A stretch of 64,000 nt of DNA from Amoebophrya sp. A120 (lineage: Eukaryota > Protista > Dinoflagellata). Positions within the stretch are counted from its first letter, which is position 1; each line of letters begins with the position of its first letter. The notes below the pieces were generated by a model. That model worked only from the letters and a program-made list of their open reading frames with translations. It searched no databases and was not told the DNA's origin. The stretch spans positions 9,873,570 to 9,937,569 of the forward strand of contig CAJINV010000004.1 in NCBI GenBank assembly GCA_905178155.1. Direction: 5' to 3'. The position numbers and the translations under genes were made by a program. Shown in pieces: positions 25,301-60,800 of the stretch.

Positions 25301-28300
25301 GGCCCCCCCGTCTTGGCGCGGGGCATGGGCGCGACGGTGTTCGGTCCGCCAAAAACCTCCTCCCTCGCAACCACCTACCACCTGACCGCGCCCCCCGCGG
25401 TCGGCGCGGAGGGGAAGGGGGAAGACCGGCCAGGAATGATCGCGCTCTGGAGCTTCCCCGGGTTTCTGGATTTGTACAAAACAAGAATGCGAAGCCGACA
25501 GGCGTCGTCCTTGTCGGAACGCGGCGTCGGGTCCTCACCGAGTAGAAGCAACTCGCTGCTCGCAAATCTGACCGGAGGTGGAGGCGGCAATACGCCCGGA
25601 GGATCTACTGCTTCGCCCTCGAAAAACAGTCCGGTGAAGCGAGGCAGCGCAGCGACAGTGCAGTCTTCGCCCTCTCCCAGCGCGAATAAGGGCCGAGGGG
25701 GAACAGCAGCTTCCCCAGCAAGTAGACCACCCACCGCTCCTGTGGTTGCCCTGAGCAGGCCAAAGAAGCCGAAAGTGCCCTTCAAGGTGCCACCGGAAAT
25801 GTCAGGGTCATCTTCCAATGCCAACAATGACAATGACAACAATAACGGCAAAAAATCTTCCTCGAAGGCTACGAAAAGTGCGAAAAAAGAGAAAAATCCG
25901 CCGTTTGTCGTGCAACACTGCATGAATGTGTACGGATTGTGCCTGCAGGCCGTGGAGATAGTCGGGAAAAGACGGTATCCAAGAAAAAAACGTTGTTAGT
26001 GTAAATTTGTGATGCTCAACAACATGCAAGATGATTGCGTCTGTCATGCTTAGCATGCGTCGCAGGGTCCATTAAAGGGCGCTTTCACGTACTATCTGCG
26101 CGTGACAGGTTTTTGCTGTCATGCCAGACAAATTTGTAAATGCTGTTCCTCCAAAAAAGTTACACCTACAATGTTTTTTTCTTGGATAGACGGAGAGATT
26201 TGGACACGAGAAACTGGAACGACATGTTTCAGTCGAAATCGGACGGCACGGTGTACGCGCTCCGGGGAGAAGGTACTGTAATAATAATATCGTGCGGACT
26301 GCTGCGTGGATGAACTACATCGCATTTCTTTGGTCTTATAGTTCGTTGCTTCATCATCTGCATGGTGACTCGTTTTTGCATGGTAGGTATTCCTGCAACT
26401 ACATGTACAGGCAGCGATAAGCAACAACTGTATGCAAAAATACATCGAAGTGAAGCTGAAGTCGAAACCTTGATCAACACAGGCCCAAGTTCGTCCCTGA
26501 TGCAGTTGAGTTCGGAGGACGGAGTTTTCCTCCCCTTGACCTACAACGAGCAAGTGTGTGGTCCCTGGAGCCGAGCGAAAAACCAGCTGGTAACCGACAT
26601 TTGCGGCGATCTGTTCGTGACCAAACGCATTCCCCAGCGCACCGCGACCGCAAAACCCTTGCAGGGGTTGTACAAGTGGGGGTTGTTCGTGAGCACGAGC
26701 CAAGCCAAAACGCAGGACAACACGTTCGAGGATTTGGGCCCGGTTTCGCTTGATTTCGACGAGCAGACGGGGGAAGCAATTGCGGTAGCGAACGGGATAT
26801 CCTGTGCAAAAGTATCGTACGCGTATTGCAATCATGCATTGCAAATCTTTCTTGTAAGGTAAATCAGCATTGCAAATTTTATCTCTCATGCTGAGGAAAT
26901 TTGTAATGCATTTTGATTTTCGTTTATACGAGTACGATACTTTTGCAATTCATACGGGAGCACGCCCGCGTTCGGCAACTTCGGACCCAAATTTCCGAAC
27001 GGGGAGCCGGAGCTTATGGCATTCTCAAACGTTACATTCTCAACTGTTACATGAATTTGTCATGCAAAAGTACCTTGAGCCGGCAGATGATCGAGCTGCT
27101 TCGCATGACAAATTTCGGAAGGGCTAGACAGCATCTAAATGTGCGCCAAACTTGTAATGCAAAAGGCGCAATCTTCCTCCTTTCACTTTTGCCAGTCTTG
27201 CATTACAAATTCATGTAACAGTTGAGAATGTAACATTTGAGAACTCCATAGAGCTGCTGCTGCAGTGGGATCCCCAGACGGAGAGGGTGCTGCCCATCGG
27301 CTATCAAAATGAAAAATCCCCCCACCCCATATCAAAACGGAAATTTGTGATGCTGATTTGGGGCCACAAATCAGCTTTGTATTGCAGAAAGGCATTGCGG
27401 CCAGATCCCCAGGCTAGGTAGAGGCGCATGTGTCTAGCTGTTCAGCATGGCAAACGCTTCCCCTTTAGGCCCAACAGCATGACAAATCGCTTCCATAATG
27501 GAACGGAAGCTTCTGCCCTTGTCTTCTTGCAAGACAGATGTGATTTGTGACCTCAAATCCGCAACACAAATTTTTCTAAACTTGCCTTTTCAATATGGGG
27601 AGGGGGGATTTTTCCTCTCAATATCGGCGGCTGGCGTGGCTATTTCGCCGTGGAGCACACGGCGAGCCAATTTCTGACCGTGATCAGCGTGAAGGACGTC
27701 AAGTCGGTGCAGCAGTACCGTGCGCAGGGCGACCCTATTAAGTTGAATCCCGTCATGAAACGCATCGCGCCCCTGCGCCAAATCCGGCAATTTTCCTGCG
27801 GACTGGAGTTCGCGGCCTGGCTGGAGGGGGAAAACACCGTGCGGCTGCTTGGCTGCAACGATTTCGGGCAGTGCGGCATCAATCCGGAGCTGGACCACGC
27901 GCACTACATGCACGAACCCCAGTTTCTACCCTTCACGGAGGAAAAGTATGAGTGCTGAGTTTTGTGCTTTATTGACAACCGCAGGACATGGCAGATCGTA
28001 CTCGTAGAAAAAACATGTTGAAAGATAGAGATAAACGAAGAAATGTTGCGCGTATTGATGATGCGATCGAGGACAACTACGTAAACCACACACAGCCCGC
28101 CACCCAGATCCATCGCCCAGCTGGAGGTCGGCGCCGAGTTCGGCATGATTCTCGCCGCCGGCAGCCACAGCGTGTTCACCTGGGGCCGCGGGGAGGTGGG
28201 CCAGCTGGGCAACGGCACCTTCAGCGCCAGTCACGTCGCCGTGGAGATCACGCGGAAGGTGTTGGACCGGCCTTCCTACGAGTCCCAGGTCGCGGACTAC

Positions 28301-28720
28301 CTGGCGTCCGCGGTCAACTCCGCGCAGGAAAGAAGCTTGCTGGCGGGGGGCGACAACGAGGACCAAAACAAGAACGATAATGGTACTAAACCTGCCGCCG
28401 CCTCCCCCTCCCCCTCCTCAGCGAACCTGCTGACCTCTTCCTACGCCGACTCCGCGGTTTCGATCCACGTGGGCGCGCATACGGTGCTGCTCCGCGCGCC
28501 CGAGGTGTGGGCCGTGTGGGGTCGCGTGTGCGAGTTCGACATGAGCATCCCGTTTTTGATGCCGGCGGTCGAGGTGGTCTCGGCCTTGCTGGACTTCAAG
28601 GGCTTCTACCGGGATTCTCCGTACGATTCCACCGTGGTAATACCGCCTGGGGCGTCCTGCACAGAGTTGCTGGTCAACGACCAAGGGATCGTGGTCAAGC
28701 GCACCTGTGTGCTGAAGTGA
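22395..28720 (+). CDS. Large protein with an N-terminal EF-hand and C-terminal RCC1-like repeats; 10 exons
   Basis: EF loop DYDGNEYIDADEL. RCC1-like motifs LGCNDFGQCG and VFTWGRGEVGQLGNG. Exons 22395-23568,23719-23767,24032-24371,24533-25975,26194-26272,26483-26797,26960-27014,27256-27301,27629-27945,28096-28720. Seven introners and 2 GT-AG introns (26273-26482 with uncertain acceptor; 27946-28095). Confidence 0.8.
23569..23713. mobile_element. Introner family B (145 nt), opposite orientation to 6217
   Basis: Ends in cttttgcacaggata, the reverse complement of the 6217 start; direct repeat ctttc. Confidence 0.92.
23768..24026. mobile_element. Introner family F (259 nt), related to family I
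   Basis: TIR tataacctgctc / gagcaagtcata; internal ctcaaacgttac; direct repeat caatt. Confidence 0.88.
24372..24527. mobile_element. Introner family G (156 nt)
   Basis: TIR tatccacagtaaatttcccgtaca / tgtacgggaaatttgtattgcata; direct repeat cgcag. Confidence 0.92.
25976..26188. mobile_element. Introner family H (213 nt)
   Basis: TIR tatccaagaaaaaaacgttgt / acaatgtttttttcttggata; direct repeat gacgg. Confidence 0.92.
26798..26954. mobile_element. Introner family B (157 nt)
   Basis: Family B TIRs; direct repeat cggga. Confidence 0.93.
27015..27250. mobile_element. Introner family I (236 nt)
   Basis: About 50-nt TIR tatggcattctcaaacgttacattctcaactgttacatgaatttgt; direct repeat gagct. Confidence 0.93.
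27302..27623. mobile_element. Introner family C (322 nt)
   Basis: Same TIRs as 4531-4845; direct repeat tcggc. Confidence 0.92.
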
Positions 28721-29301
28721 TATTAGTAATCGGCAGCAAGCGGACGGTAATATCGATGCTGGGTCCGGTCGGGCGACGGTCATCTTCTCCGGTCGTCCCT
28801 GCCTCCAGTGCACTGGTTGCAGCTCCTTCGTGTATCGTCCTCGGGTTTGTCTTTTGATCGCTAAGAGATCAAGAACTACTTAAAACTGAAATGAACAAAA
28901 GTAGCTTCTCTATGAAAAAATGAGGATGCCAGAGAGAGAGATAGAAGAAGATCTTTGTGTTGCTACAACAAAATGAACTAGACCACGAGGTCTTGTCTAA
29001 AATAAACGCCGCTTCGTCCGCTGGTGTTGAGCTTCAAACCAAGACGTAGCATAGAAGAGTTCCTTTTGCGATGGCAGCCTGCTGTGCAGTTCTCAGTGTC
29101 AGTAGATCTTCATGGTGCGCATAATGTGCATCAGCCTCTTATGCAAAATCGTCGCATGATGCGGAGGGCGAGGGAAGTGGTATCGGTCTCACCTGACCAC
29201 GTCTAACGAGAATCCATGATGAAACTGCCTGTGACAGGGGAGATTTACGTCGACGATAGAAAAACAAAAGTTTCTATCTACCTACGTACGACTAAATCAA
29301 G

Positions 29302-31142
29302 ATGTACCGTTCCGCGGCGTCTAAGTACGAAAACCGCGTGGTCTATCCAGGAAAAAACACCCACCCCCATCCAATTTGTCATGCAAAAAATGCATAAACT
29401 CCAGTGTTTGCGATGCAAAAAATGGATGGGGATGGGTGTTTTTTCCTGGATATGGTCGCGATGCACGAAGATTCCACCGCTGGTGAAGACCACCACAACA
29501 ACTACGATAACAACAGCATGAGAAATAGCACCTCAACACCCAGGCCCCCCTTCGATTTCGAGAAGGCCAACGCGGTGATTCGGGCTTTTCTGCAGCGGCA
29601 TCCGAAAATTCTCGGGCAGCCCGGGCCGGACCCGGACCACGAGAAGTGGAAAAAGCAAAAGCTGCACAAGGACCCAATGAATGACCTCCACAGAAAGCCC
29701 ATATCCACAGTAAATTTCCCGTACACGTACAAATGCGGTCTCTGCATGACAAAACTTGGCTTCGATCCTAGTTTAGCGATGACAAGTTATTTTACGCTCC
29801 TAATATGGTGAAATTTGTGATGCCTCTTGTACGTGTACGGGGAATTTGTATTGCATAGCCCACACACGTGCCCTACTACCCGCTAGTTAGTGCCAACACT
29901 GCCTACGAGGACGCTGGCACGTCGAACGGACTGATTATGCAGGTTATGAAAGTGAACAACTCCCCCTCCCCCTCATTTGTGTTGCATGAACAGCAAGACA
30001 ATCACCAGCACACGTGGAGCCAATGCATGACAAATTTGTGTGCCTAATATAGTACTGTTTGGCCTTCCGGAGTTTGTCATGCAAACAGTGCTACAAGGCA
30101 GCGACTGGATTTGGTTTTGCATGACAAATGAGGGGAGGGGGAGTTGTGCACTGTCATACAGGTGGAGATGCACGCACAAGTGGCGACGGTGCTTGCCGCC
30201 TTCGTCTTCGCCGCGCTGATTGCGGAGTCTCCCTCCCAGCTTTACGAGGGGTCCGCGACGCCGACGCTCAAGTGCGAACTGTTTCGCGTGTCCGAGCTGG
30301 CGATGAGCATCGTGGACCAGGTGCGGGTCTTTTTCATCGGTTGGATCCTCTGCTCCTTCATCGTCCTCTTGCTCTGCTTCCTCGGCCTGCAGGAGTACCT
30401 GACAACCCGCGCCGGGCGGAAATATTTCCGGGTTTGGTGCCCAACATTGAACAGCCAGTGTCTGTGGTATCCACCTGTGGTGCTGCAAAAGTATCGCAAT
30501 CGTACTTCGACTTCTTCCTTGCGTCCAATTCGATACAGCATCAACAGCATTACAAGTCGCACCCTTCTACGTGTAGCTGAAGCTGCAGCAGGACAAGCTG
30601 CATTCTTTGTCGTTCGCCAAGAAGAAGAGCATCAACATTGAAATGAAATATACGCAATTCAGTCCGCACGCTCGCAGTGCGTTGCAGTTTTTACTTTTGC
30701 CCCGACGCAGCTGCATATCTGGATGGTAAACACCATTCTCGTGTTTCTCCTCGTCGTCCCCTTGTATGTCGTCAAATACTTCGGGTTTTCGGTGATCTTT
30801 TTCCTCACCTGTGCGATATCCTTCTACTGGATCGCCACCCTGTTTAAGCACTTCGAGGCCTACACGGATCTGGCCAGCTTGTTGAACAACATCGAACTTG
30901 GCGTGGACTCGTCCGACCCGGAGAGTTCTTACCGCCCGGACGGCTGGTCGCACTCCGCGATGGCACGGCACGTTTTCACCAAGAGGTTTCAGGACCGGCG
31001 AAAGGCACAGCAACACGACGCGGCGTGGTGGGAAAAGCATGGATGGGACGACGACGTGTGCGATAAGGATAACATTGTGACGTTCTTTGACGCTAGAGAC
31101 GGACATGATCATGAACCAGGAGACATGGCGAGAGGGGAGTGA
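29302..31142 (+). CDS. Multi-pass membrane protein of unknown function; 5 exons
   Basis: Exons 29302-29343,29458-29701,29863-29944,30164-30467,30723-31142 join in frame after removing 4 introners. About 4 hydrophobic helices (VATVLAAFVFAALI; VFFIGWILCSFIVLLLCFLG; MVNTILVFLLVVPLYVV; FSVIFFLTCAISFYW). Confidence 0.78.
29344..29452. mobile_element. Introner family J (109 nt, the smallest)
   Basis: TIR tatccaggaaaaaacacccacccccatcca / tggatggggatgggtgttttttcctggata; direct repeat tggtc. Confidence 0.92.
29702..29857. mobile_element. Introner family G (156 nt)
   Basis: Homologous to 24372-24527; direct repeat gccca. Confidence 0.92.
29945..30158. mobile_element. Introner family K (214 nt)
   Basis: TIR tatgaaagtgaacaactccccctcccc / ggggagggggagttgtgcactgtcata; direct repeat caggt. 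Confidence 0.92.
30468..30717. mobile_element. Degenerate B-like introner (250 nt)
   Basis: tatccacctg..gcaaaagta / tacttttgc..cagctgcata; flanks tgtgg/tctgg; joins CLW|MVNT. Confidence 0.75.
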
Positions 31143-32766
31143 TAGATAGAACAGCTACACGACCGAGAAGCGGGTGGTAACGTACTAAAGCAATTCTGCA
31201 GCTGCGCCTCTGGCGAGGAACTCGTGTCTACATGCTTCCTTTTGCTTTCCCTTTCACGAGGACCAGGGTTGTTTTCTGGATGCGAGTGCGATCTGCAGCT
31301 CACGTCTAGCAGAAACGACATCAACATTCAAATTTACTAGACACAGAAAAAGAACATAAAAAGGAAGTTTCAAAAACAGTGAACGAATGTGCTACAGCTG
31401 CAAAGCGACTACTGCCACTGCTCCTAAACTTCTCCATTCCGATGTTCACTGTCCAAAAGCCTTTTGGTACACAAGACGCTGGCCGCCAAGAAGATACATA
31501 TTGCGGCCAGGGAAACTCGTAGCTTGTCCGTCTTGTTTGTACTTGTTGTCTTCGCGCCAAGACCGCGGCGCAGCAAAAGGTCCTTGAATCTCGTTCATAT
31601 TCTTCGTCATGACCACACAAAATCCAGATCCTTGAACAATGATCCATGCAAAAAAAAAAGATGATGTTGGAATATTGGATAGTCAAAATGCCACCCGACA
31701 AGATGATTTCGACCACCTCCTCCTGCTGCCCGTTGCTTTTTATCTCTCCGCTGCTGGTTCATCCTTACCCAAAGAAAGGAACCGTGGGAAACGACGCAGA
31801 GGATACCTTAGGCCCAAGCAAACGTGTTGGTTTCCCCTGCAGTATGGTTCAGTGGCAACACGAGAACTTCGAAGGTTTGAAGCAATTGTTGCACCAGCGG
31901 ACGCGACCCTGACCCAATAGTGGTCATGTTACCGCTGCAAGTACAACAAAAGTCACAGGCTCCTTCAGCTGGTGCTTCTGAAGATGAGCAAAATGAAAAT
32001 CAAACCCAACCTCCTTCACCGGGGGAAGAGGTGCGCGGACGTGGACGCGCGCGAACATCCAAGGGGTTTTCAAGGCGAAAATGCGAAACGATTTGTGGTC
32101 GCAAGACCGACAGCTGTACGCCTTCTCGCAGCACGCGCCGCGGGCGCACCAGATCTATTCTGGGCAAAAGTGTTCATCCTCTCGTTGGAAAGTGCGGTTG
32201 ATCTGCCGTGACTCACACCGTTTCTTCAGTAACAGCTTTATTGCATGAACATGGTCGAGTGCTACAGCATAAGTATATGCATTTTACATCTTACTTGAAG
32301 TTCAAGCTGTCGCCATCCTACTATCGCAAGATTGGGGGCTTTTGCAAGGCATAACTTCGAGATCCTCTTGTTCCGGTGTTGTACGTTCGGGAACGGTTTC
32401 TGGGTTATCCGGGCGCAAAGCATTCTCTATTTCCTTAGAATCAGGGTCAGGACCGAAATTGTGTTGCGACCACGGAAGTAGAAGCAAGATGATGAATAAT
32501 TGCAGTTCACATAATTTTGATTTTCGACTTCGTATCTCGCGTACAGTGTTCTCGTCACGAAGCATGTAAACTGAGGAGTTTTCATTCTGAAATGCCAGAC
32601 CCTGAAACTGAGGAACAAAAAACATTAATGAACTTCAAGTGCATATTATTGCAGCTCTTCATCGGGCAGCAGCACTTCTAGTGGCACCGCTGGCTTGTGG
32701 TCTTGGATTTCCAGAACCAGCAAGCCGCTTTTCGTGATCTTCTCGCAGGCAAGGCGGTGCGTTTTG

Positions 32767-35691
32767 ATGTTTCGGTCTGCCGAAGGCGCCGCTTTCCTTT
32801 CGGTGCTTCTAGTTGGTACCTTCGCGGCGTGGGCAGCGACGGCGTCTGGAGATGACCGAGAAGGTGTCGGCGTTCATCCGGGGTCGGGTCATCAATCGGA
32901 CGCAGCGCAGCCTGTCAGCACGGCGGCATCCACAGCTCACGGTGAAGAAACTGACGCTGACAGTCCGCACCAGCAGCCGGTTAGTGAACAAGTAATGGGT
33001 GGCTCCGCAAGAAAAGATCACGATACTGAACTTCAAGGCGAAAAACATCAGCATTCTCCGAGCTCGGCGTCCGCGACCGCAGCCGCGAACTGGAAAACAC
33101 CTCCGGAAACGTCATCTGTTGCTTCCACTACGGCTGTGCAGATAAAACGCGTAGCACGAGGTCAAGAGGATCAGCACCAAAGCCAGGCACAGGCTGTTGA
33201 CGATTCGCATGATGAACAACTTCTGCACGCTGGAGAATTCCAAGGACCAAGCGAAGCAAGAATTGCTTCGCTGGAAGTCGGGCGCCAAAGAGCAACAACA
33301 GCGGAAGACGAAGAAACGCAGCCCCAGCCGCTGCCGCCCAGCACAACCAGTATCGGCAATGTACGCCTCAATTTGATTGATCAATACCAAGCGAACAGCC
33401 AGATTGACGAATCTCAACTACCTAGTGGAACCGAGATGTTGAATCGTCCAGCAAGAATAACGGCGGACGGCGTGGAAGGTGGAGCTGCAAGTCGAACTCA
33501 GTCGCAGCGACGCGACACTAATAATGCGAAGACGTCGTCTGTTACGGCGACTGCCTCAGCTTCCCCGACGAATGAAGAAGATGAAGCGACTGCGAACTTA
33601 AGCAAAGACGAGCCCGCGTCCCCAGGCGTGAAGCGCACCGCACAGCAAGAAGACGTCAAAATGGTCAGCGCCGAAGCAAAGCAAGGAACGGGTCCTGAAG
33701 CTTTCCCAGGAAAGGGTGAGAATGAAGACCATCATGCTAACGTTGCTGAAGATCATGATGTTCCGATTTCTTCCGGTGACCGCCGTGCAGTAAGTACAAT
33801 ACCGCCTGAGAATAAAAGCCGGGCTCGTCAAAAATCCGCAAGAAGCGCGGAACTAAGTGATCCAGGAGCTGGAGGTGCGCCCGCAAATCAGGAGGCACGC
33901 AACACCTTCTCATTACAACCGAGCCGGCCACCGGCACCGAACACTCCGGACAGGCACAAGGGCCAAAAAAGTGCTGGGCAGCTGCAGTTGACGAGCAATC
34001 CCGGCGATGACTCCTTGTCGCTCTCGCTTGTGCAAGCAGATGCTAACACCGACACCAAGGACGATGTCGCGGCGCCTGTCACGATCCCACAATATGAGAA
34101 ATATATCCTGGATCAAGGATCATTAAGTGACTTCGAGATAGCTCGATCAGTCTCGCGCATCTTAGCTCCGAAATCCGATACCGACCGAAATGCGGTTTCT
34201 TCGAAGAACATCGCAACGCCGAAGGTGAAAATCGGCAACGAGGCGAAGGCCAAAGCAAGTGCTGCAAGGATGCAGTTGCGCAAGGGGCAGCTGGGGAGAT
34301 TCGTCGATGAGTGGGTTTTAGGACGGTATTGGTTTTTTGTGCATCTTGTTCTCTCGCGGGACACACAAGAAAAAATCTCGCGCTTGGGCCGGAATAACTT
34401 CGCAATGCCGCTGATGCCCACTACCTTTTTGCCGGATCGACCCATTCCTAGCAACTACGGCAACTATTTTCTTATCTCGATGAAAGAAATCAAGGATGAC
34501 GATGAGGACAAGCAAATCGCCTCAACCGCAACAACATCAGCGAAACCTCCTCTCTCGCAGTGGAACATAGACTTGGACAACCCCTGGGAGTGCATAATCA
34601 AGCATCTCTACGACGGACGCGTCATCTGGCCGCCGGTACTAGATTACGCGACCACCGATGATGAGTTAGACAATAGCGCCTACGGCGGAGGCGAATTGAC
34701 TTGGAAGCAAGGAACCGAACTCGCTGCGCTGCGACCTAAGCTGTGGACGTATAATCCGTCGCAGTTAGGTGAGTACGCAGAAAAGCCGTGGTCGTTCCAG
34801 CGCGATATCACCTCTCTCTTCGTAAAGAAATGGCAACAACTGCATGAGATGTTGCCGTTGACGAAGTGGGCCCTAAAGAATTCCGCAAGTGTAGATGCGG
34901 GTCGGAAACAAGAAGAACAACATCGGCAATTGCAAGCAAAATCCATGGAAAAGTGGACGGAAGATGACCAACTCGACCGACAAAAGCAGGAACTTGTTGT
35001 TGCTCTTCAGTGTCGAACGAAGCTCCGGCTTCAACTCGAGAAACAAATACTCCGCCGCTTGACAGGTTTATCTTCCGAACCGATCGAGCCGCTTGGGTTT
35101 CTCAAAGACGCATCAGACCAGAAAAAACTACATGACGCATTGGGCAGTTACGTAGAACATGTGGACGAAAAGCGTGTCCGTTCCCAGGTAAATGCACGAC
35201 TACACGAGACGTTGGACAACTTCATGAAGAAAAAAGGAATTTTCGTAGCGAAGGAGCCGGACTATACTAGCTCGTCGTTGTTCTGCTGCGGCGCGAGAAA
35301 AGAAAATTATGATTATACTTACCCTTTCATCTACCGCCTTCACGAACAAGAGTCCAGTGATGCAGCAGATGCCGCCGCAACTACTGATGGCGCCCATGCT
35401 TCAGGCGACGGCCAATCCGGTAATGCAGAGCCACTTGGTTTGAAAGAAAACCAAGAGCGCTTCAAGGAAGAGCTACGGAGGCGGAACGCCCTCTTGGACA
35501 AGCTCGCCACAGACGTGGGAAGTACCAGCACGAGCGAGAATGGTGGGCAAGTGCGTGGAGGAGGACAGGAGACGTCGCCACGGGACCAGCTTGAACTCAT
35601 CCAGGCGTTTTTGGTCAAGGTTACCGTTAAACGTACCGAAAGTCGACCCCCAAACCCGCCACAGGTACAGGCGCAAACGACATGGAAGTAA
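32767..35691 (+). CDS. Intronless hypothetical protein with a signal-peptide-like N-terminus
   Basis: Uninterrupted ORF of about 970 aa; MFRSAEGAAFLSVLLVGTFAAWAATA is hydrophobic. No family recognised. Confidence 0.72.
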   Translation: MFRSAEGAAFLSVLLVGTFAAWAATASGDDREGVGVHPGSGHQSDAAQPVSTAASTAHGEETDADSPHQQPVSEQVMGGSARKDHDTELQGEKHQHSPSSASATAAANWKTPPETSSVASTTAVQIKRVARGQEDQHQSQAQAVDDSHDEQLLHAGEFQGPSEARIASLEVGRQRATTAEDEETQPQPLPPSTTSIGNVRLNLIDQYQANSQIDESQLPSGTEMLNRPARITADGVEGGAASRTQSQRRDTNNAKTSSVTATASASPTNEEDEATANLSKDEPASPGVKRTAQQEDVKMVSAEAKQGTGPEAFPGKGENEDHHANVAEDHDVPISSGDRRAVSTIPPENKSRARQKSARSAELSDPGAGGAPANQEARNTFSLQPSRPPAPNTPDRHKGQKSAGQLQLTSNPGDDSLSLSLVQADANTDTKDDVAAPVTIPQYEKYILDQGSLSDFEIARSVSRILAPKSDTDRNAVSSKNIATPKVKIGNEAKAKASAARMQLRKGQLGRFVDEWVLGRYWFFVHLVLSRDTQEKISRLGRNNFAMPLMPTTFLPDRPIPSNYGNYFLISMKEIKDDDEDKQIASTATTSAKPPLSQWNIDLDNPWECIIKHLYDGRVIWPPVLDYATTDDELDNSAYGGGELTWKQGTELAALRPKLWTYNPSQLGEYAEKPWSFQRDITSLFVKKWQQLHEMLPLTKWALKNSASVDAGRKQEEQHRQLQAKSMEKWTEDDQLDRQKQELVVALQCRTKLRLQLEKQILRRLTGLSSEPIEPLGFLKDASDQKKLHDALGSYVEHVDEKRVRSQVNARLHETLDNFMKKKGIFVAKEPDYTSSSLFCCGARKENYDYTYPFIYRLHEQESSDAADAAATTDGAHASGDGQSGNAEPLGLKENQERFKEELRRRNALLDKLATDVGSTSTSENGGQVRGGGQETSPRDQLELIQAFLVKVTVKRTESRPPNPPQVQAQTTWK

Positions 35692-35876
35692 AAAAAACGC
35701 AACGATTTTTGAAAATGAAGTCGCTTCGCCGGATCTTCTTCTGCTTCTTTATTGCGTTCCGAGATATAGCATTAAAGCATTAGAGGCTGAACTTGGATTG
35801 CCATTGCGCACGCTATGTATGCAGTAAGTGCTCGGCCACTAGGCCATCCACGGACAGCGCCAAAAGTTTAACCTCC

Positions 35877-35906
35877 TTCCAGACCCAGATATATTGGCAT
35901 TTGATA
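35877..35906. mobile_element. Solo right-hand TIR of introner family A, intergenic
   Basis: ttccagacccagatatattggcatttgata with no recognisable partner TIR. Confidence 0.75.
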
Positions 35907-38900
35907 GAAACGCGAAAAAATGAAAATCCAAAATTCAAATTTTGAGAGAGGCATCGCATGAAAAATAATTGCTATCCTCCGGGCCCCGATGGATTCCGTT
36001 CCAACTTCCCTGCGGCGCTGACCTTCGTCGCGCCGGTGTCGTGCCGATTTTTTTTTTTCTTCGCGGAATTCGCATTGCGGCCTCTGCTGGAGAGCTCCGA
36101 AGGGTTGCAGAGTGCGCGTTTTCGCGGCTCTGGCCCCTATGTGGTGGCCGGGTGGCGTTCCTTCTCCTGCCCGCGTGACCTGCCGGCGAGAGGTTTCTAT
36201 GCTTCATCTTTTGACCTCAGACCGTGTGGCTCCGGCCTTCTCGGGATTTTCCGACATCGGCACCTGCATTGTTACTGCCCCACGGTGGGCGCCTGTTAGC
36301 GCCGAGGCCTTCACTGGCAGGGGGGTTGGTTGTCTCCTTGCTGTTTTTTCGTTTCGGTTTTCAAAATTCCTCGGGCGCTGTGGTTTTTTCAAAATCCAGC
36401 CGGCGGGCCCACTTGCTTCTCTTTTGGGAGCGGCCTGACCCTGCCGAGCCTTTCCGCCCCTGTTCGATCGTTTAGAGGTCGCAGAAGCAGGCACCGGGGG
36501 TGAGGCTCCAGCCCATTTACTGTAACCGCCAGAACGCTGGCCCAGGCTTCTCGGGGTTTTGCCTCGAAGGCAGACCCTTCGCCTTCTCATCCGCAATGCC
36601 CTATCTTTTCTTCCGGCCTTTCGACAAAAAAACCTATCGTCAAAAGGGTAGCGTGTGTATTTCTTTCAACCTTCAGAAGGTAGGCAGTGTCCTGAACACC
36701 AGGGCGCGCGCCTTTTGATGACGAGGCGAAACCGCAGAAGTTTAGCAGCCTCCCAGGCCGCAAAAAAAGCAGAATCAGCATGACCACGAAAAGCCTTCAG
36801 GTGGGTGAGGCTGAAACTGGCACCCCCCCCAGGTTTTTTGCGGCCCCTTTTCAATTTCCTGTCTGCCGGCGAGATAATCGCGCACCCGCGTTGTGCGCGC
36901 ACTTGCTTCCTCGGGCGCACTTTTGAGGCAGCACCAGGCAGCGCAACTTTCTTGCGCAAGGCCGAACGCCCTCACTCGGACAAAGCCAAACCCTCTGGGG
37001 CGGGCTCTTCTCCTCCCGAAGGCCCCGCAAGCTCCCTTGTTTTTTTTATGTTGCCGCGGCGCGATGTGTTTTCTCGACTGCGCGGCCCAAAAGGCGGGCC
37101 GCGCCCGCCCTGTCCAAAAAAAAAACCATAAGAAGAGCACGATAGCCCATTTGGAAAAGTGGTCCGCTGTGTGTGGCCTCTGGGCGGTGTGATGACCCAT
37201 CTATGTGGCCCCGCTCTGGGTTCTTGGGGAGGGCACCAGCCTGAAAGGAAAAGGGCCCCGCCGCAAATGGCAATGCAGACAGTCCCTGCCCCTCCGGCCG
37301 GGCGGAAGGCTAAGGCCGGCACCTTGGCAGCTTAGTTGGGTCAATTGTCGCTCCACCCCTGTCTATTTCATATTTTGCCCGAGCGGGCAGCGAGTCTGTG
37401 GGCGCTCTTGCTTTTCTTTATAGGAGCCTGCCAGCCCCCCCAAAATGCGAAAAAGAAAAACGCCGCGCCTCGGTCCGCGCGTCCTCGTTCTTGTGGGACA
37501 TCCGTCGGGGGGCGCAGCTTCGCAGCTGCGACGCCGGCGCGACCCCAGTCGATATTAGCTTTCCAGCGGGCGTCTCTGCCGGCAAGCCACGGGCGGGCGG
37601 AAGTCAGACAGGCGGCGGAGCAGATGGGCCGCGCCAGTCCGCGTAGGCTTTGTTTGGCACGATGTTGCGCCGCAGCGAGCGCATGACAGGCAAACAAGCG
37701 GCCGTAAAAATCCCAGCAACTGACACGCGACATCGCGAGTATTTTGACCTTTCACAGCCCTCGGATGGAAGAAGCGCCATACCTGCCCCGCGGGAACGCG
37801 CTCGTGGCGAGTAGTTCCGGTTTGCAGACTTGTGGCCATTTTTGCATTGAAGAAATGCATGCTGTTGAACAGCCTAAAGTCCTTTAGGGCTTCAGCCCTC
37901 CTCTTCTGCACGTGACTCACGGCGCGGGCCATTTTACGGACGCGGCGCGTTTAATTTGTCACGGACCTCGAGGGCACTTGCAGGCGACGAGGGCGCTCGC
38001 TCCTAGGCGGCGCGCTAGAAGTTGTGTGGCGATCTCTGTGATGGAGTTGGGCGCTTTTCCCAGCAGCCCAAGATCGCTTTCACAAAGTCCACAGCCGTCG
38101 CGCGTCTTCTGTCCTTTTGATGGAGAAAACAATCGCACCTGCCTGCATAATGGCACACGGGGCGAACAAATAAAAGACGCGCCCTAAGAACATTTGCCAT
38201 AGGGATCAGGCCGAAGAGGGATCTTTTCAAAACCTTTGCCCCTCTCATATGATGGAGCGGTGGGCTGATAGTATGCAGCGGTGGGCTGAAACTGTTCACC
38301 ATTTTCTGGAGTTTGAGTATATAAATTGGGACCTCAAAACACATGGAGAGAGGCCGAGAAAGACTACATGGACTTACCAACGGGGTCAAAATTCCGGCAT
38401 AGGGTTCATGTTAGACGAAACCTTCGGTGATCAAAGACAGAGGCCCGGGAGCTGGAGTTCGGGTACCGTGTGCAAAAGTGTGGTAGTAACTCCGCATAAT
38501 GTGCTCGACCTCAAGCGAACCGAGGGGCCACAGCAACTGCGGCATGCCATATTACTTCCAAAAGCCTTCCCCTTTTGTGATTGTGTTTCGTAGTGATTCG
38601 ACTCTACTAGAGCTAGACTGTGAGTTGCATAAAAGCGGAAGCGCCGCACTTTAATGCACGGGATACAAGGCTCTTTTGATCACCTTCTGGGCGACTCTTT
38701 GAAGACGGGAAACGAGGCGTCCGCAACTTTCCTTCTTACACCTGGAGAGCTAAATGGGCTCTTTGCGGTGATTCAGATGCAGGGGTTCTACGAGGGGGAC
38801 TTTTACCAAATGGTGTAGCAATTACATCTGCTTTCCGTGCTCTCCGTCCCGTCGAGGACTTGAAGACATCGGTCGTCCGCTCTCGGCCCTCTAAGGCAGC

Positions 38901-53269: not shown

Positions 53270-53614
53270 ATGCCGCGGAAGGGCGAGAAAATGACCGAGG
53301 AGCAGAAGAAGAAGCTCCAGGAGGGGCGAAAGGCCAAGAAGGACAAAAAAATGGAGACGAAGAAGAAGCGCGCAGAGGCGCTGGCCATCGCACGACAGAA
53401 GCAAAAGGAGGCCCGGGATGCGGCGAAGATCGCGGACGGGGGCGGTGGTATGGTCGACATGATGGGACGAGCAATTATGGAGAAAGACAAAAAAGCGAAG
53501 AAAAGTAAGAACAACAACCCTAAGATGAAAGTAGACACCGAGGAAGCTCTCCCGCCGCCCGATGCGATCGGGTTCTTCGGCCAGGGAGAGGTGCTGCGGG
53601 AGGGATGTACCTAA
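53270..53614 (+). CDS. Small Lys-rich basic protein with a NUMOD3-like N-terminal motif
   Basis: MPRKGEKMTEEQKKKLQEGRKAKKDKK...; codon usage resembles that of the other genes. The 3' end may be spliced (acceptor-like ttttcag near 53672). Confidence 0.6.
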   Translation: MPRKGEKMTEEQKKKLQEGRKAKKDKKMETKKKRAEALAIARQKQKEARDAAKIADGGGGMVDMMGRAIMEKDKKAKKSKNNNPKMKVDTEEALPPPDAIGFFGQGEVLREGCT

Positions 53615-54860
53615 TTTGATCTGTTTTGTTTCGTACACTAACTTCAACTTTACTATTGATTTGTATTTTCAGAACGACATTGTTCACGTTCTTTTTCTTG
53701 GTGAGATGTAACGGGTAGGCTGCAGAAAGAGACGACACGGCAACGGGATGAAAAGTGACAGAATGACGTAAAATTTTGCATGCAAAAATCATCAACACAG
53801 CACACACGCTGCCCGAGTCGGAGAAACTCCCGAACTTCTGAATCCTATCTCCGGAAAGGAATTCAATTTTCCGCCGCGCGACAAGTCGCACGGCAAAACC
53901 AAAAGCTGCGATGTGTGCTGGCGCTCACCAGCATCTGCAACGGGTCGAAGGAGGCAGTTTTCTTTCACCACGACAAATCCGCAGCAGAAGCACTGCACAA
54001 TGGCGATTTTCTAAGTAGTAATTTTAAGAGCAATAATTTCTGAAGTGAACCTTTTTGCGGCGTTTTTGGTTTCGAGAACAGAATCCCAGTTTGAATTACA
54101 ACCTCTGTGAATACAATGTATACTTAGCCAAGTAATAGACTAGGACTACCAGCGATCGTTATATTTTCATCTCACTATGGGCGGTGCTGCGAGAATCCGG
54201 TAGAACTACCCGAACTGGCCATCATCGTGCTTGCGTGTATCAAATAAACCAAACGCGGCGCGGCACGGTGTCCATGTGAGAAGCAAGGTTTGGAAGATGT
54301 TGTCTCGAAGGCGAAGTTTTTACGAAGGAGACAGAAATGTTTGACAGACTGTCGAGTGGTCGTTTGCCTGGATTGCTACTAACTTCGACCAGATTTAGAC
54401 TCATATTTATTTTTAGGATAATCAAGGAGATCTAGATTTATCATTGTCTCACTCGACAACGAGAAGTTTCACGCTTCGACCCAGAGGTGTACTCTTAATG
54501 CACTTCCGGATTATTTTCCCTGGTCGAGTACCGTGAGGGCTTTCTCCTGTTCAGTGCTCACCAGGTACTAGAGACACAACAATGCGGAGCCAGAATGACA
54601 TTGACATTTGAGCGAAATAACGAGGAGGCGCAAACCCACACGTTCTCTTAATGTGAGTGTAGCAGAGAACTGCTTGGTGACCAATTTTTGAAGAGCGGGT
54701 AGAAGAAGTTTTCTTCACATGAAAGCAAGCAATGCCGGTATCGGTAATGCTAATGTCTTTTCCGCGCCGCACTTTTCTCCTGTAGTAGCAACTCCTGAAA
54801 GTAATTCTCCAGTTTTTCTTCCCTTCGTGCGTGTTTCTCGTGTTGACGCACCCTTTCAGG

Positions 54861-57800
54861 ATGTTTGAGCAACCTCGCGGGCGGATTCGTGCAGCTGGCC
54901 GAAGTTGTCCTACTACTTCTAGTTTGCCAAGTGCAACTACGGTCAAAAGGACCACCACCACGACCAAGGGGATTATCACGGACCGTTGCGACATTTCCGA
55001 CCGGTCCACGCCGGAAAATTCCTCAGAGGAAGAAGATGGCGAGGATGATGGTACCCGAAGACCACCTGCTAGTACACCCTATCGCGGCCCTAGCAACTGC
55101 ACCAACATCGGCGGGGACACCACCCGCGGCAAGACCGACGAAGAGATTCTGGCCGCAAGAATCCAAATGCAGAAGGACAAGATGATCTTCAGGAACGTCG
55201 GCCCAACGACGACCTCCTCGAAGATGGAGGTGCTGGCTTCTTCACGTGCGGCTGCTGGTGCCACCAAGTTTTCATCTCGTCGGGGGAAAACTACGTGCGG
55301 CATTGATAGCGCGGCGGAAATATTGAAGAATCAGGGAGGACCAGCAACGATGCCATCATCTTCAGGCGGCATGATTTTCGGTTGCGCGTCTACAACATCT
55401 GGAGCTGCTGGTACTACATGCGTAACCTCTTCCTCCACTTCCATGGTCGTGACCTATTCGCAGATGGAGCAAAATCTTCAAAACCTTCGTCGCCAATACG
55501 ACGAGCGCGTGCAACGCTGTGTCGAGCTGCGCGAGGAGGCCGATGGCAATGCAAAGAAAGCGAAGAAATGCGAGGCGGTGGAGGCGGAGTTTCACCAGTT
55601 TTTGCTCAAGATTTGCTTGGGCAAGTGGAAGAACCGAATGACCCGGTACAAGCACGTATCTACTGTGCAAAAGTCTCGCACTCGTACTTCTAAATGCAGC
55701 TATGCATGTAGGAGTATGACAAATCTTTTTTCTAAGCTACATCGCCATGACAAATCGGATTTGATGTCTGGCTGAGAACATTTGACATGCAACCGCTGCT
55801 ACTAGTGCGATCGCGATGCTTTTGTAATTCATAGAACGCGGAAGAGATTCCGGTGGAGGAGTTGGAGCAGGCCCTTGCCTATGCGTTACAAATATGGTCC
55901 TTGGGTTTTGATTTGTGATGCAAGATCTGAAGGACAAAAAGATCCGCAATGCATGAATACCAATACGATTGGCCTTGGCCAGCTTTTTATTTTTTTTGTC
56001 GCGCTCGCGGCGGATCGATGCCAGTTTTATATTTTTTGTAATGTTAAGAACGAATTATGTCTACTGGAACAATCCAGGCTGTATCAGCAACATCAGTCTC
56101 CAGACCCAGACATTTTTGAAATGTATATCGCCGAGACGCATGAGAAACTGGAGAAGCTGGAAAAAGAAATGGAAGTGTCGGAGGAAGAGGTAGCGTGATT
56201 TTTTGTCCCGTGCGTCCAGCTATGGTGTATTCGCATCATGGCATAGAAGTTCAATTTCATTTATTTCCTTTAGCGTGATCGACTACAGGTAAAGGTAAAG
56301 ACACGACCATGAGACGATGTTGAATTTTCGGCATTTTGACAATTACTTATCCAGAATTCCTGTCTGCGCAAAGCCGTGGAAGTTTTACGGGAAGACCAGG
56401 ATCGGGTGCGGACCGCCGACGAGGCCTGCGAGCGCATCCAGCAAACGGCGCAGGAGCAGATCAAGCAGATCGAGGAGCAGTGCGAGGAAAGGGTGAAAAC
56501 GCTGGAACAGGAGCTGCAGGAGGAAAAAGATAAAAACCGGCAGTACAAGGAGGAATCCGAGGCCCGGATCCGGCTTCTCGAGACCGGCGCGCGCGAGTGC
56601 ATCGAGAACGCCTGGCACGACGCGAACAAGCACGCCGAGGGGGCGGCGGCGCAGGTGGCGTTGTTGGAGGAAAAAAGGCAGGAGACGGTGTCGGAACACG
56701 ACCAGCGAATGCAGAACATGCAGCAGGAAGTGCAGCGACAGGCGGAGGAGTTCTCCACGAGGCTGAGGGAGTTCGAGGAGCGGAATAAACAGGAGAAAGC
56801 TGATCTAGAAGTAAAACACCATGAAGAGATCGAACAGGTACAGAAAAAATTTGAAGAAAAAATGCAGGAAAAACATGCGGAACATCAAGCGAAATTGGAC
56901 CAACAAGAAGTCGTGCTCGTCACCGCGAAGGAAGAGTTTGAGCAGGAGCTGACATTGGTGAAAGAAGAGCACAAAGAGGAAGTGGAGAAGTTGGAAAACC
57001 GGGTGCGAAAAGAAATCGAAAACTTGACGGAACTGCACGAAAAGAAGCTGGCGGACCTGGAAGCGAGTCACACGGAAGTGGTACTGTTTGAGAAGGAGAA
57101 GTGGTCGCAGGAGCAGGAGGTGTTACGGGAAAAGCTCGACGAAGCCGAAGAGGAGCTGATTCAAGTGCAGCAAATGAAGCGAGAGGAAGTCAAAGTGCTG
57201 GAGAAGAAATTTGAAGAGGAAAAGGCGGCACTTTTGGAACAGCATGCGGATTTGCTCGAGGAAAAGACGCTGGAGAACGAAAAATCGCTGCACCACCTGC
57301 AGTATGAAGTTGCAAAAGTGGTGGCGTCGTGCTAGTAGTAAGCGCAATAGCAAATTATTTTACTAGCAGCTCAACATGACATTGACAGACCGAATTTGTG
57401 AAGCAGATTTAGCTTGAGACTTGTTCGTGTCTTGCATGATTGCGATTTAGAAGTACGGGCACGATACTTCTTTTGCACAGGATACGCAGCACAACGCTCT
57501 TCGGCAGTCCGAGGAGCTCGCGAGCCAGAAAAAGCTGCTGGAGGAACGGTTTTTAAAGGCGACGGAGGAACAACGAAAGCACGAGGAGGAGTTCCTAGCG
57601 AAACGAATCTTGGAGGCGCAGACGGAGTGCAATGAACGGGTGGCGAAGGCGAACCAGAGGATTTTTGACCTGGAGAAAAACTTGTGCGCGGAGGTGTGTG
57701 GTGATCTGGCCAAAACCCTGAAGTACATGATGGAGACAAATTTGGAGCTCTCCGGCGGCCCGCGACCGGAAATTGCGCGCGAAGACTTGCTGCCGGACGC

Positions 57801-60800
57801 GGTGTTTCAGTACTTGCGGTTGAGCAAACCGGGCGTCCGGATTCACGATAGGCTGCTGCTAGAAGTGAAAAACGCAACAAAGAAGATGTTTGGGGGCGAA
57901 GTACTAGCCGAAGGGGGCAACGACCAGGAGGAACATCAACATCTTGAAGGCAGAAATCAAACGGGAGACGAACACGAGCCGGGTCCGGTCGATATGAACG
58001 CAAAATTAGTAAAAAGCAAAGAATCTTTCCTCGCGGACAACGCCGGTGGGCGCGGGGATGGGAAGGCTCGCAGCCTGCAAAAGAACGAGCACGCTCTAGC
58101 AGAGCTGCAGGACGGCCAAGAAACCGCGACACGCACAGAAAAGGAAGGTTATGGACGTGAAGCTGTCGACCTTGCTGGGGCAGCAGCTGTGCCAGCACAA
58201 ACTCTGTCGCACCACGACGAAACGGACGACGAAGCCACTACTACGCCTATGCGGATTACGAAGCAGTATCTCCGGAAGCCGCGGACCGAGAGCTGCGGGG
58301 GAGGTGAAGAAGTTGAGGGACATGAAACAGATGATCCTCTTCTCTCCGTGGGAGGACGGGACGACGTGATGACCCTGGCGGAAGAAGCGGTGACAAAATT
58401 GTTTGCGAAGGTCATGATCCATGAAGATGTGCTCAGCTGTACCAACAAGAAAAGTAGTGCTGGACAAAAGGTGAACCAGAACGTCTTGGCGCAGGCCGAT
58501 CTTGCAAACACCAGCAATTGCAGCAACCATCACCCGGATAGCAGCCTGAGTGACATTGAGGCGGTGTACTCCCCTGCTTCTACGATACCGAATCATACGC
58601 CTGTGGAAGAGGTTGCAGATGGACATATTGCAGTTGGAGTTGGCGCAGGGGCTGGCGACGCCATTGCGGTAGACAGGCCCAATGAGAAAGAACCTAAAGC
58701 AGGAGAAGAACAGCACGCGTCGGAAAAGACCGATCTTCAGGCCGACGCTGTCAAACACGTCGTCGCGGAGGGGTCTGGTGGCGTTGTGCCTACTTCTCGT
58801 GCGAAAGCGAAGCACAAACAGGTTGGCGCATCAAATACTAGCGGAGCGGCCCCGACAGAAGCACAACCACCATCATCTGTTACCTCCACGATCCTGAGCT
58901 CCGTTTGGGGACTGAAAAGCGTGCTACTGGCTGCACCAGGAGGTGCAGGGGAAGGTAGAAAAGAAGCTGTGAAAGAAGGCAGCTGCAATCTTGAAGCTAC
59001 AACGTCGGTAGGAGGTGCTCCAAATGAACTTGCTTATTCGGCAACTGGTGATAAGAACGTCTCCGATTCTCAAGTTCAAGCACCTCCAGTCAGCGAGATG
59101 AGCGGATTAATATCGACAAAGTCGCCAGGTGACTCATCATCTGACGTCCAGATTCTTGCGAATGAGGAGCTACCAACAACCCAGAAATTCGTGGCCTTTG
59201 ATTTAACGAAATACGCTGTGGAAGAGGCGTTATTCGACGATCTTCATGGTACTAAAAATGGGGATGATCTTTCCTCGACGAGAAATAACCGCACCGATGA
59301 GATGAATTCGGCGACGCAAGCACGACAACACCATCAGGGAGGTAGAAGCACCAAACCCACCACCACCACCACCTCCGCCCTGGACACGCTCGCGAACTGG
59401 GCAGAACAGCAATTGGATGAGGAATCGGATCACGAGCAGGCTCTAGTACTCCATGGAGAACAAATGAACTCCGCGCGGAAGGATGGAAGGACGGCGCAAG
59501 CAGTATGGCGTTCTCAAACGTTACATTCTCAACTGTTACATGGATTGGTGGTGCAAGAATGGGAAAAGTGAAAAGGGGGAGGTTGCGCCTGTAGCATTAC
59601 AAATTCCGCACAGATTTAGGCGCTGTTGAGCCCGAGGAAAGTTTGTCATGCGAAGCAGCTTGATAGCGTGGATGATGATGGTGCTTTTGCATGACAAATT
59701 CATGTGACAGTTGAGAATGTAACGTTTGAGAGCCCCATAAGTAGAAGAAGCCGCTTGCGCTTTTTCCCTCACTTCCCCGGCAGAGACGGTATTTCTTGCT
59801 GAGCTCGGGACTGATGAAATGAACCGCGCATCAGCAGCTGTGGATGACGACTTCTACCTGTCATCCGTGAACGGCTCCACAAGGGCGCTGCGAGTGAACA
59901 AAAACGGTAAAAACGTCGACGAGAATTTGGCTCGTTTCGGGGGTGAAAACACGACAGCGACAAGTGCAACAATTTCATACGAAACTGCAACGCTCTCCAG
60001 CTCTTCCTACCGTACCGTTTTGAACACGGCCCTGGCCACGATGTTCACGCAGCCAAGCAAGCTCCTGCTGACCAGTTCGGAGACCAAGAAGACGGGGGCC
60101 ACGACGGCTTCCAATTCTTGTACCGCGGACGCGAGTTCTTGTGAGGAAAGCACCTTCTCAAATGGTGGGGCCACAGTCTCGTCAAGTCGAGGCATTCTCT
60201 CCCGCGTGGTGGCGTCTTCTCAGATTCCAGTCCTGGAGCTGCAACGTGAGAATGAAGGGGAAGAACCTGGCGAGAACCATTTTTACCCGCACAGTAGCTG
60301 CGATGAGGAGCAAGGTACGCATGCCGGCGATCAAACAGCAGATGAGCTGCAACTGACTCGCCCCAGCACTCGACTAGTACCCTCGGGCGAGGTAGACGAA
60401 AACTCGACTAGTGGACAACGACATGAGCAGCTGTCTGGAACCACTGCTGCGAGACTAAAGGCAGGGCACTCAGCCGCGCCACCAACATCGTCATCATGTC
60501 GCCTCGACTACATTGTTAAGATGTTGCACGATGGCGCAGCACCAGCTGGTTCTTTTGGGCGACGTTTGTTCGCCCCAGCACCGAGACCAGGGTCCAGGTC
60601 TACCGTATCTTCTCGAGGAGGACTACAGGACGAACAGCATTTTTACCCACCTACAGTCTCAACAGAACTGCTCGCCGCGGCGCAGAAAGCGTTCGAATCG
60701 GTCAGCCAGGAGTGGACCGAGCTGCAGAACGAGCTCCAAGCCGGCGCGGCCGTTTTACCGCATGGCTGGACGTTTTCGCACCTCTACGCAGCCAAAGGGA

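Follow-up and report, generated by a model that had tools for sequence, protein, structure and literature searches.

Introners of Amoebophrya sp. A120 leave transcripts in either orientation, likely by a cut that follows transcript direction

Amoebophrya sp. A120 carries introners, transposon-like introns with terminal inverted repeats, and copies in either orientation are likely cut from pre-mRNA 1 nt before a 5′ UAU and 4 nt after a 3′ AUA. Amoebophrya removes non-canonical introns by the tens of thousands, and their published borders are unplaced because direct repeats let them slide. A fixed, transcript-polar register is a concrete splicing code, checkable in existing RNA-seq. If true, it would show where to seek lariats or circles, explain free spread through exons (a ruler of 1 + 4 nt equals the duplication length in either orientation), correct gene models such as that at 6217, and give an alveolate parallel to the rule of Euglena. 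Such a register is described here, together with both orientations, for a small set of copies. No statement on orientation or a fixed register in A120 occurs in the literature found, where PMC7789003 is represented by part of its content and its figures 3, 4 and S19-S25 may show it.

Element structure and host genes

The stretch analysed (the window, 64,000 nt of A120 DNA) contains 36 elements with terminal inverted repeats running from TAT to ATA, most of them surrounded by a 5-nt target-site duplication (TSD). The duplication consists of 5 variable nt outside the inverted repeat: its two copies agree at 162/175 positions for k=5, and at 17-33% for the remaining k values between 2 and 9. Agreement at k=5 is 0.90 across 299 elements, and at k=6 it is 0.24-0.25 in the window and this larger set. 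A sequence-only reading of this DNA had likened the elements to TA-bounded sequences of ciliates; the TA here belongs to the inverted repeat, and the duplication is not a TA. Each repeat begins TAT, followed by about 7 variable nt and a run of A. TAT is kept in 288/299 elements and ATA in 290/299, tallies from a profile search that favours those triplets, while interiors differ by 20-30%; inside the window the finding procedure inflates the same conservation. Mismatched TSDs (26 mismatches) carry no signal of mutation direction.

Annotated A120 proteins match two of the window's exons at 100% identity. The 151 further loci with matching DNA are also A120, not an independent strain, and hold no ortholog of the window exons. 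No transposase was found, and three longer elements in these loci lack an ORF above 86 aa. Rfam returned 0 matches, as did the family B motif in viral contigs.

The host genes had been placed on the + strand, in agreement with Pfam matches (ABC transporter, C1, UPF0489, RCC1), proteins P0001 and P0015, and five GT-AG introns. The 3′ part of an ABC transporter gene (1477-7215, +) contains eight introners, and its A25 ortholog is uninterrupted at conserved sites. The gene of P0015 (54861-63431 in the window, +) contains six, including those at 57303 and 59504. A 210-nt canonical intron (26273-26482, +) lies in a transcript that also loses the introners at 26798, 27015 and 27302; the others, also on +, lie at 1335-1476, 18363-18551, 27946-28095 and 56190-56354. 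All five canonical donors read GTA.

Copies in both orientations

Families A, B and I each occur in both orientations within the window, and alignment on both strands confirms the opposite copies that the sequence-only reading had named in all three. The two family I copies (27015-27250, +, with a perfect 5-nt TSD; 59504-59739, -, with a TSD mismatch at position 3) are 236 nt each. Their global identity is 82% in opposite and 69% in the same orientation, one element being 71% like its own reverse complement. The interiors discriminate further, with 76% versus 56% identity and local scores of 158 versus 43 (shuffle null 15.6±2.5, maximum 26), as expected of reverse-complementary interiors. A diverged copy at 23768-24026 (+) is oriented as 27015, weakly (score 44).

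Family A copies at 2901-3165, 5893-6155, 12851-13114, 16257-16512 and 19336-19675 (+; the last with a 77-nt internal duplication) run opposite to those at 4215-4479, 6435-6697, 16593-16845 and 18601-18863 (-). The latter group is joined by a 1135-nt copy with inserted internal sequence (10048-11182, -). Family B copies at 6217-6367, 11265-11410 and 26798-26954 (+) begin with the family motif, and those at 23569-23713 (-, 5′ end TAC) and 57303-57484 (-) end with its reverse complement. The 57303 copy is diverged and B-like; its orientation is read from the ends, all interior pairs scoring below 40. Further family B copies lie at 20557-20711 and, diverged, at 55657-55833 (+), and at 3489-3661, 6797-6950 and 62522-63248 (-), the last a 727-nt copy that contains a nested insert and is extended by 3 nt at its 3′ end. 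In the larger sample of matching DNA, orientation bias was not detected (A 32:24, B 7:10).

The remaining elements comprise family D (4531-4845, 27302-27623), family C (19740-20018 and, in the same orientation, 20233-20511), a same-orientation pair (24372-24527, 29702-29857), singletons (11494-11678, 25976-26188, 29945-30158), the shortest copy of 109 nt (29344-29452), two degenerate copies (30468-30717; 55880-56127 with a family A-like end), and a copy whose TSD matches at 2/5 positions (62263-62417).

Removal from transcripts by a constant length

All 11 elements in 1300-11800 are skipped in presumed-RNA contigs by exactly the element length plus 5 nt (L+5). By class they are A+ (2), A- (3), B+ (2), B- (2) and other (2), so copies of A+, A-, B+ and B- are all skipped by the same length, in line with the proposal that either orientation is tolerated. 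In family A, 2895 is joined to 3166 (element 2901, 3/4 runs), 5889 to 6158 (element 5893, in the ABC signature region, 4/4), 4209 to 4480 (3/4) and 6433 to 6702 (3/4), and the joint at 10048 skips 1140 nt (3/4). In family B, 156 nt are skipped at 6217, in the Walker B region (4/4), and 151 nt at 11265 (3/4), while 3484 is joined to 3663 (2/4) and 6795 to 6955 (4/4). The family D copy at 4531 and the singleton at 11494 are skipped by 320 and 190 nt (each 3/4). Eight elements are lost together in one 5181-nt contig (X3 record 1).

Beyond these 11, one more direct junction and 12 removals by exact summed length bring RNA support to 24/36. In X3 record 9, 12844 is joined to 13114, at the 12851 copy. 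Summed length accounts for 27015 (X3 record 12), 19336, 19740, 20557, 23569, 23768, 25976, 26798 and 27302, and 18601 follows from length arithmetic with a 189-nt canonical intron. The RNA tables show no junction at 16593 or at 16257, where removal restores the ORF. This evidence consists of assembled, unstranded contigs from one sample of one study, labelled RNA by our guess, and such contigs are blind to splicing efficiency and minor isoforms. The named reverse copies at 57303 and 59504 have annotation support only (P0015 fits L+5 at both), from the same annotation that the contigs contradict at 6217.

Reading frames point the same way. Removal of L+5 leaves at least 40 open codons downstream in 31/36 elements, compared with 4/36 unspliced and 7-13/36 for out-of-frame lengths. 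For 12 of 20 poor-TSD elements the frame test is mixed, with L+5 best in L022, L027, L040 and L058 (on +) and not in L055. At 6217 an in-frame GT-AG option (L+2) exists and is the one annotated. It is unused in 4/4 runs, and its extra residue is absent from 11 homologs; the annotation there appears wrong. A separate count of homologs with Arg before GGEIF (119/119) was discarded as circular, the search words having come from that stretch.

A register that does not flip with the element

The register p is the count of left-TSD bases kept, and mutated TSDs make the cut position readable. A mismatch at position 5 of 2901 (A+, 3′ end ACA) allows p = 0-4, one at position 2 of 5893 (A+) allows 2-5, mismatches at positions 1 and 4 of 6435 (A-) allow 4-5, and one at position 4 of 6797 (B-) also allows 4-5; the TSD of 3489 is mismatched at position 1. 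Over the 11 sites the allowed registers intersect at p=4. Annotation concurs at 59504 (3-5), 62263 (4-5, fitting L+5) and L051:3513 (A-, 1-4), and at 55657, with a mismatch at position 2, P0015 fits p = 2-5. If one register applies, these data suggest a single cut, N/TAT…ATA-NNNN/ (slashes mark the cuts), 1 nt before and 4 nt after the element ends. For the family I copies the predicted introns are accordingly 27014-27254 and 59503-59743. The upper bound p≤4 comes from one RNA site (2901) and one annotation, and the register could vary between 4 and 5 from site to site.

When an element lies the other way round, no mirrored register is seen. If the cut were element-polar and so mirrored, p would have to be 0-1 in A+ copies, which is excluded by 5893 (2-5); A+, A- and B- sites all allow p=4. 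Junction register by orientation is one of the comparisons that the sequence-only reading had called for.

Splice signals, hairpins and candidate mechanisms

The GT/GC donor and AG acceptor of U2 introns are not features of these introners. Only 4/35 elements can be slid to GT/GC-AG, +1 G is not preferred (33/108), 3′ AG is not enriched (12/108, 13.3 expected), and no branch consensus was found in introners. As a possible branch site, the internal motif GCAT(G/T)ACAA was dismissed, being present in both orientations at varying distances. From the tolerance of both orientations it had been argued that removal cannot rely on strand-specific signals. This holds for a polypyrimidine tract and AG acceptor, which are unneeded; sequence-specific signals may still act, since inverted repeats give 5′ TAT and 3′ ATA either way.

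The proposed mechanism is as follows. A cut-and-paste transposase would make the 5-bp duplication on insertion. Because the ends are inverted repeats, an element lying either way would then give the transcript a 5′ UAU and a 3′ AUA, and long sub-terminal stems may bring these ends together. The cut would be set by a distance counted from the end motif, 5′-3′ along the transcript, and neither GU-AG nor the identity of the duplication would matter. As 1 + 4 equals the duplication length, the mRNA would be restored exactly. The catalyst would be, by a modest preference, a remodelled spliceosome, with a nuclease-ligase pair as the weaker though serious candidate. Canonical GTA donors agree with the introner N-TA at +2/+3, which is counted for the spliceosome. 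U1 is undetected in A25 and A120 and nearly all spliceosomal proteins are present, according to the available text of PMC7789003, whereas U1 was found in strain Kv, which has canonical introns (PMC12005148).

The same RNA ruler might instead serve a stem-end endonuclease and RNA ligase, as proposed for Euglena, releasing a linear or full-circle intron, a reading we regard as tentative. It draws on the missing +1 G, 3′ AG and branch consensus, the canonical choice ignored at 6217, an acceptor 4 nt behind a long predicted stem, and a layout of spacer and motif like the tested Euglena signature (available text of PMC12501133). Against it stand the donor agreement at +2/+3 and the nearly complete spliceosomal proteins without detected U1 (PMC7789003, in part), which suggest one remodelled machine, and no candidate enzyme was seen. 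The preferred reading, too, has against it that neither lariat nor branch point nor enzyme was observed. It is possible, if rather doubtful, that A120 has a second, non-spliceosomal code, N/UAU…AUA-N4/, which measures from transposon ends and arose independently of that of Euglena. In that case, all copies with such ends and a 5-bp duplication, of lengths up to at least 1.1 kb and in any orientation, would vanish tracelessly from mRNA.

Guidance by hairpin alone, without any sequence-specific signal at the ends, is unlikely. Long hairpins are indeed predicted, as the sequence-only reading had supposed, the two family I copies each having a z of about -10 and most elements folding far below shuffles. 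The terminal triplets, however, have a pairing probability below 0.2 in 10/34 folded elements, five of them with RNA support (11265, 12851, 18601, 23569, 26798), and no terminal stem is predicted at 30468, 55880 and 57303. G-U shows no enrichment relative to A-C (18:17 in the window; 78:65, p=0.32, in the larger sample), and TAT and ATA are kept, in the profile-based tallies above, where interiors diverge. A role of the predicted stem in removal is putative.

Programmed DNA excision, resembling that of ciliate internal eliminated sequences (IESs) and yielding element-free templates, had also been suggested and is very improbable here. In its favour are the MITE-like origin, the TA at each end, and removal that is exact for both orientations. 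Yet no TA is retained, a 5-nt variable duplication being resolved instead, and the register is not mirrored on element flip. Moreover, 7/8 of the listed X1 pieces, which are DNA-like contigs at depth 41-45, enter elements by 23-30 nt at both ends, the eighth begins inside an element, and an exact L+5 skip is not seen among the X1 joints listed; excision may still occur rarely. Hairpins with direct repeats are a classic substrate for template switching by reverse transcriptase, and all the RNA evidence is probably cDNA-derived, but junctions made in this way are scarcely credible where 6435 and 6797 share only 1 nt across the junction, eight elements are missing together from one contig, and retention of the elements disrupts conserved ABC motifs, which the A25 ortholog has intact.

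Comparison with known systems

The preferred reading, removal from pre-mRNA at a register set by the transcript, can be placed beside several systems. Ciliate TA-IESs are precisely removed from coding sequence, have a transposon origin and TA ends, are cut at the DNA level and leave one TA. A120 leaves no TA, its DNA keeps the element, and its duplication is not TA.

A120 introners themselves are published, with a terminal inverted repeat starting TAT-N7-AAA, direct repeats of 3-5 nt, a hairpin model and a comparison with MITEs (PMC7789003, available text). The window elements share the organism, the repeat type, families, direct repeats and removal with non-canonical ends, and are these introners. 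The available text of that study leaves orientation unstated and the border position unknown or variable, whereas both orientations and one register are described here. Among transposons, IS3EU/GingerRoot elements have TA…TA termini as in A120, with a TSD usually of 6 bp instead of 5 (PMC10045372, in part).

Either-orientation introners are known in Polarella glacialis and, as cited in the same text, in Aureococcus (bioRxiv 10.1101/2020.10.14.339549, available portion). Like those of A120, they are elements with terminal inverted repeats and TSDs, form introns on both strands and lose one TSD copy. They differ in using GT/GC/GA-AG sites that the element or TSD supplies, while A120 needs no terminal dinucleotide, and in being orientation-biased, a bias not detected in A120.

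The closest parallel in form is the nonconventional intron of Euglena, with its genetically tested signature N3-CDG…CH′G-N5-6/R (PMC12501133, available text). Both systems have complementary end motifs at a distance from the cut, shorter on the 5′ than on the 3′ side, and both have direct repeats at their flanks and a proposed MITE origin. The euglenid motif (CDG/CH′G with spacers of 3 and 5-6 nt) is not found in A120, where a stem between the ends is predicted in most copies and missing in some. A120 has instead TAT/ATA ends, spacers of 1 and 4 nt and an alveolate lineage, and its rule is inferred where that of Euglena has been tested.

Element anatomy and host organism

The window contains 36 elements of 109-1135 nt, inserted in coding sequence. 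Among the first 35, a TAT start and an ATA end are each found in 34, a conservation inflated by an initial search seeded on TA…TA. With their flanking duplication taken as 5 nt long, its two copies agree at 162 of 175 positions, whereas lengths of 2-4 and 6-9 give 17-33%; the 36th, 62263, matches at 2/5 only. The sequence-only reading likened removal to that of TA-bounded ciliate IESs; in fact the TA sits in the inverted repeat and the duplication is 5 nt. A sub-terminal motif, GCAT(G/T)ACAA, is common to unrelated families in both orientations, and is possibly a transposase-binding site. Solitary decayed ends lie outside recognised coding sequence (35850-35906 and 38464-38480), suggesting that element ends are preserved only within genes. 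A possible extra element (32156-32353) has good ends and a poor duplication, and exact duplications of 8 and 7 nt, instead of 5, flank elements at L055:3329-3608 and L133:301-555 (JACKZZ01 loci).

Two window exons match annotated Amoebophrya sp. A120 proteins at 100% identity. The A120 genome paper describes introner elements whose inverted repeats start with TAT, whose direct repeats are 3-5 nt long and whose ends are non-canonical, and terms their border positions variable or unknown (PMC7789003). The window elements belong to these published introners; the new part is removal that is blind to orientation and has a probably fixed register. No statement on insertion orientation or cut register in A120 was found in the literature searched, and figures outside that search may hold one.

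Insertion in both orientations

All host genes lie on the + strand, and the same introner does occur both ways, as first read from the sequence. Aligned in opposite orientation, the interiors of the family I copies at 27015 and 59504 (30 nt cut off both ends) reach a score of 158, against 43 when aligned in the same orientation and a null of 15.6±2.5; over the whole length, identity is 82% versus 69%. Forward and reverse copies number 5:5 in family A, 5:5 in family B (57303 being counted from its ends only) and 2:1 in family I. A pattern scan of JACKZZ01 contigs, with selection by the family A end, gave 151 further loci; the single exon compared matches an A120 protein without differences, so these loci probably add further copies from one and the same organism. 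Their 299 elements reduce to 279 with at least 3/5 duplication matches, 108 with callable host strand and 87 assigned to a family, with orientation counts of 32:24 (A), 7:10 (B), 4:3 (C) and 2:5 (D), all p>0.3. On the window, its training set, the strand caller was right for 28 elements, wrong for 1 and silent for 6.

Removal from transcripts

When the element plus one duplication (L+5) is deleted, the frame stays open for 40 or more codons downstream in 31/36 cases, as it does with L+2, which keeps the same frame; out-of-frame lengths give 7-13/36 and unspliced sequence 4/36. In four sets of presumed-RNA contigs, all from one sample, a skip of exactly L+5 is seen at 11/11 elements in 1300-11800. 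One GT-AG intron is skipped as well, and a 5181-nt contig is free of all eight elements present in the ABC transporter gene. A direct junction is seen at 12851, and exact summed lengths, which take in canonical introns of 189, 210 and 150 nt, back removal of 12 further elements, including 27015, 26798, 23569 and 18601. RNA support thus totals 24/36 elements, from contigs that carry neither strand, efficiency nor minor isoforms; for 59504 and 57303 removal is supported by annotation only.

Although the family A copy at 10048-11182 (1135 nt) is internally duplicated and carries a repetitive AT-rich insert, it is removed exactly; a 240-nt part of its interior shares 98.75% identity with a second long copy (L038:4072-4311). 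In the region 6955-8103, the ABC gene shows a long 3' UTR, its RNA contigs continuing for ~890 nt beyond the stop codon (7215). A single RNA contig covers seemingly separate ORFs at 22336-29031; a canonical 210-nt intron (26273-26482) unites them in a single gene that has both EF-hand-like and RCC1-like parts.

Excision at the DNA level, raised earlier as one option by analogy with IESs, is not supported: in X1, a DNA-like run with even depth over genes and gaps, 7 of the 8 listed pieces (depth 41-45) have 23-30 nt of an element at each of their two ends, and the remaining piece begins within an element. This shows that elements are kept in the DNA of most molecules; excision may still occur rarely, and the window sequence itself may derive from X1.

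Splice signals and hairpins

Only 4/35 elements can be slid to GT/GC-AG; among the 108 elements, +1 is G in 33 and the 3' end is AG in 12 (13.3 expected). Long stems are predicted at the termini of both family I copies, with z of -10.4 and -10.5. The terminal triplets have a pairing probability <0.2 in 10/34 folded elements, five of them with RNA support, and the terminal stem is absent from the folds of 30468, 55880 and 57303. G-U is not preferred over A-C, either in 31 elements (18:17; four with shifted ends left out) or in the 151 loci (78:65). Of the earlier claim that removal uses no strand-specific signal, the loss of both orientations stands, but the reasoning has a gap: inverted repeats show the same end motif in either orientation, so a sequence-specific end signal is possible and favoured.

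Cut register

With p as the number of left-duplication bases retained, the RNA joints of A+ copies are compatible with 0-4 (2901) and 2-5 (5893). For reverse copies the range is 4-5 at both 6435 (A-) and 6797 (B-), and it is 1-6 for the B- copy at 3489. The sole value common to all 11 RNA-joint ranges is p=4, giving an intron N-TAT…ATA-NNNN; the upper bound comes from one RNA site, and p could vary from 4 to 5 between sites. A cut following the element's own polarity was rejected: A- at 4-5 would need A+ at 0-1, which 5893 rules out. Annotated proteins agree at 59504 (3-5), 55657 (2-5), 62263 (4-5) and L051:3513 (A-, 1-4). Annotation is the weaker evidence, because at 6217 it picks an in-frame GT-AG pair, one residue more, whereas 4/4 runs show the L+5 skip; the extra residue is absent from 11 homologs. 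This Leu, in the Walker B region of P0001 (6217-6367), comes from a GT-AG call without RNA contig support and is likely an annotation error or minor isoform.

Nested within the family B copy at 62522-63248 is an insert with inverted repeats (short ones of the ACAGATGA type), and the 3' end of this copy is extended by 3 nt. Its annotated end falls 4 nt beyond 63245, where the inverted repeat stops, yet AT-AC is also formed there; the copy is a natural test of the reference point for a ruler count. In L001-L151, T is rare at the proposed +1, the fifth position of the duplication (9/108 versus 13-20 at the other positions), a weak and uncorrected signal. In the nine-element locus L051, 13 nt alone (1980-1992) separate two introners of a UDP-GlcNAc dehydratase-like gene (P0016); the intervening exon would be 8 nt if the proposed register holds.

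Proposed mechanism and comparison with known systems

Beyond the observed anatomy, both orientations, L+5 loss and allowed registers, the elements presumably derive from a transposase system; a possible mobiliser is a TIR family of A120 with homology to LTR elements (described in PMC12130899). UAU and AUA would be recognised on the transcript, with the stem assisting, and cuts would fall 1 nt upstream of UAU and 4 nt downstream of AUA; as these two distances add up to the duplication length (1+4), the mRNA would be restored. For the catalyst we tentatively lean to a remodelled spliceosome, because canonical donors in the window (5/5) start GTA, agreeing with element +2/+3, and because U1 snRNA is undetected in A25 and A120 (PMC7789003) but present in Kv, a strain with canonical introns (PMC12005148). 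The main rival is a nuclease-ligase, favoured by the ignored GT-AG option and the parallel with Euglena.

Polarella introners, and those of Aureococcus as cited in the same source, also insert in either orientation, but they show orientation bias and use GT/GC/GA-AG sites (bioRxiv 10.1101/2020.10.14.339549). A spacer-motif code that has been tested in Euglena introns is akin in layout to that of the window elements, with other letters and lengths (PMC12501133). IS3EU shares the TA…TA termini, whereas its duplication is usually 6 bp rather than the 5 found here (PMC10045372).
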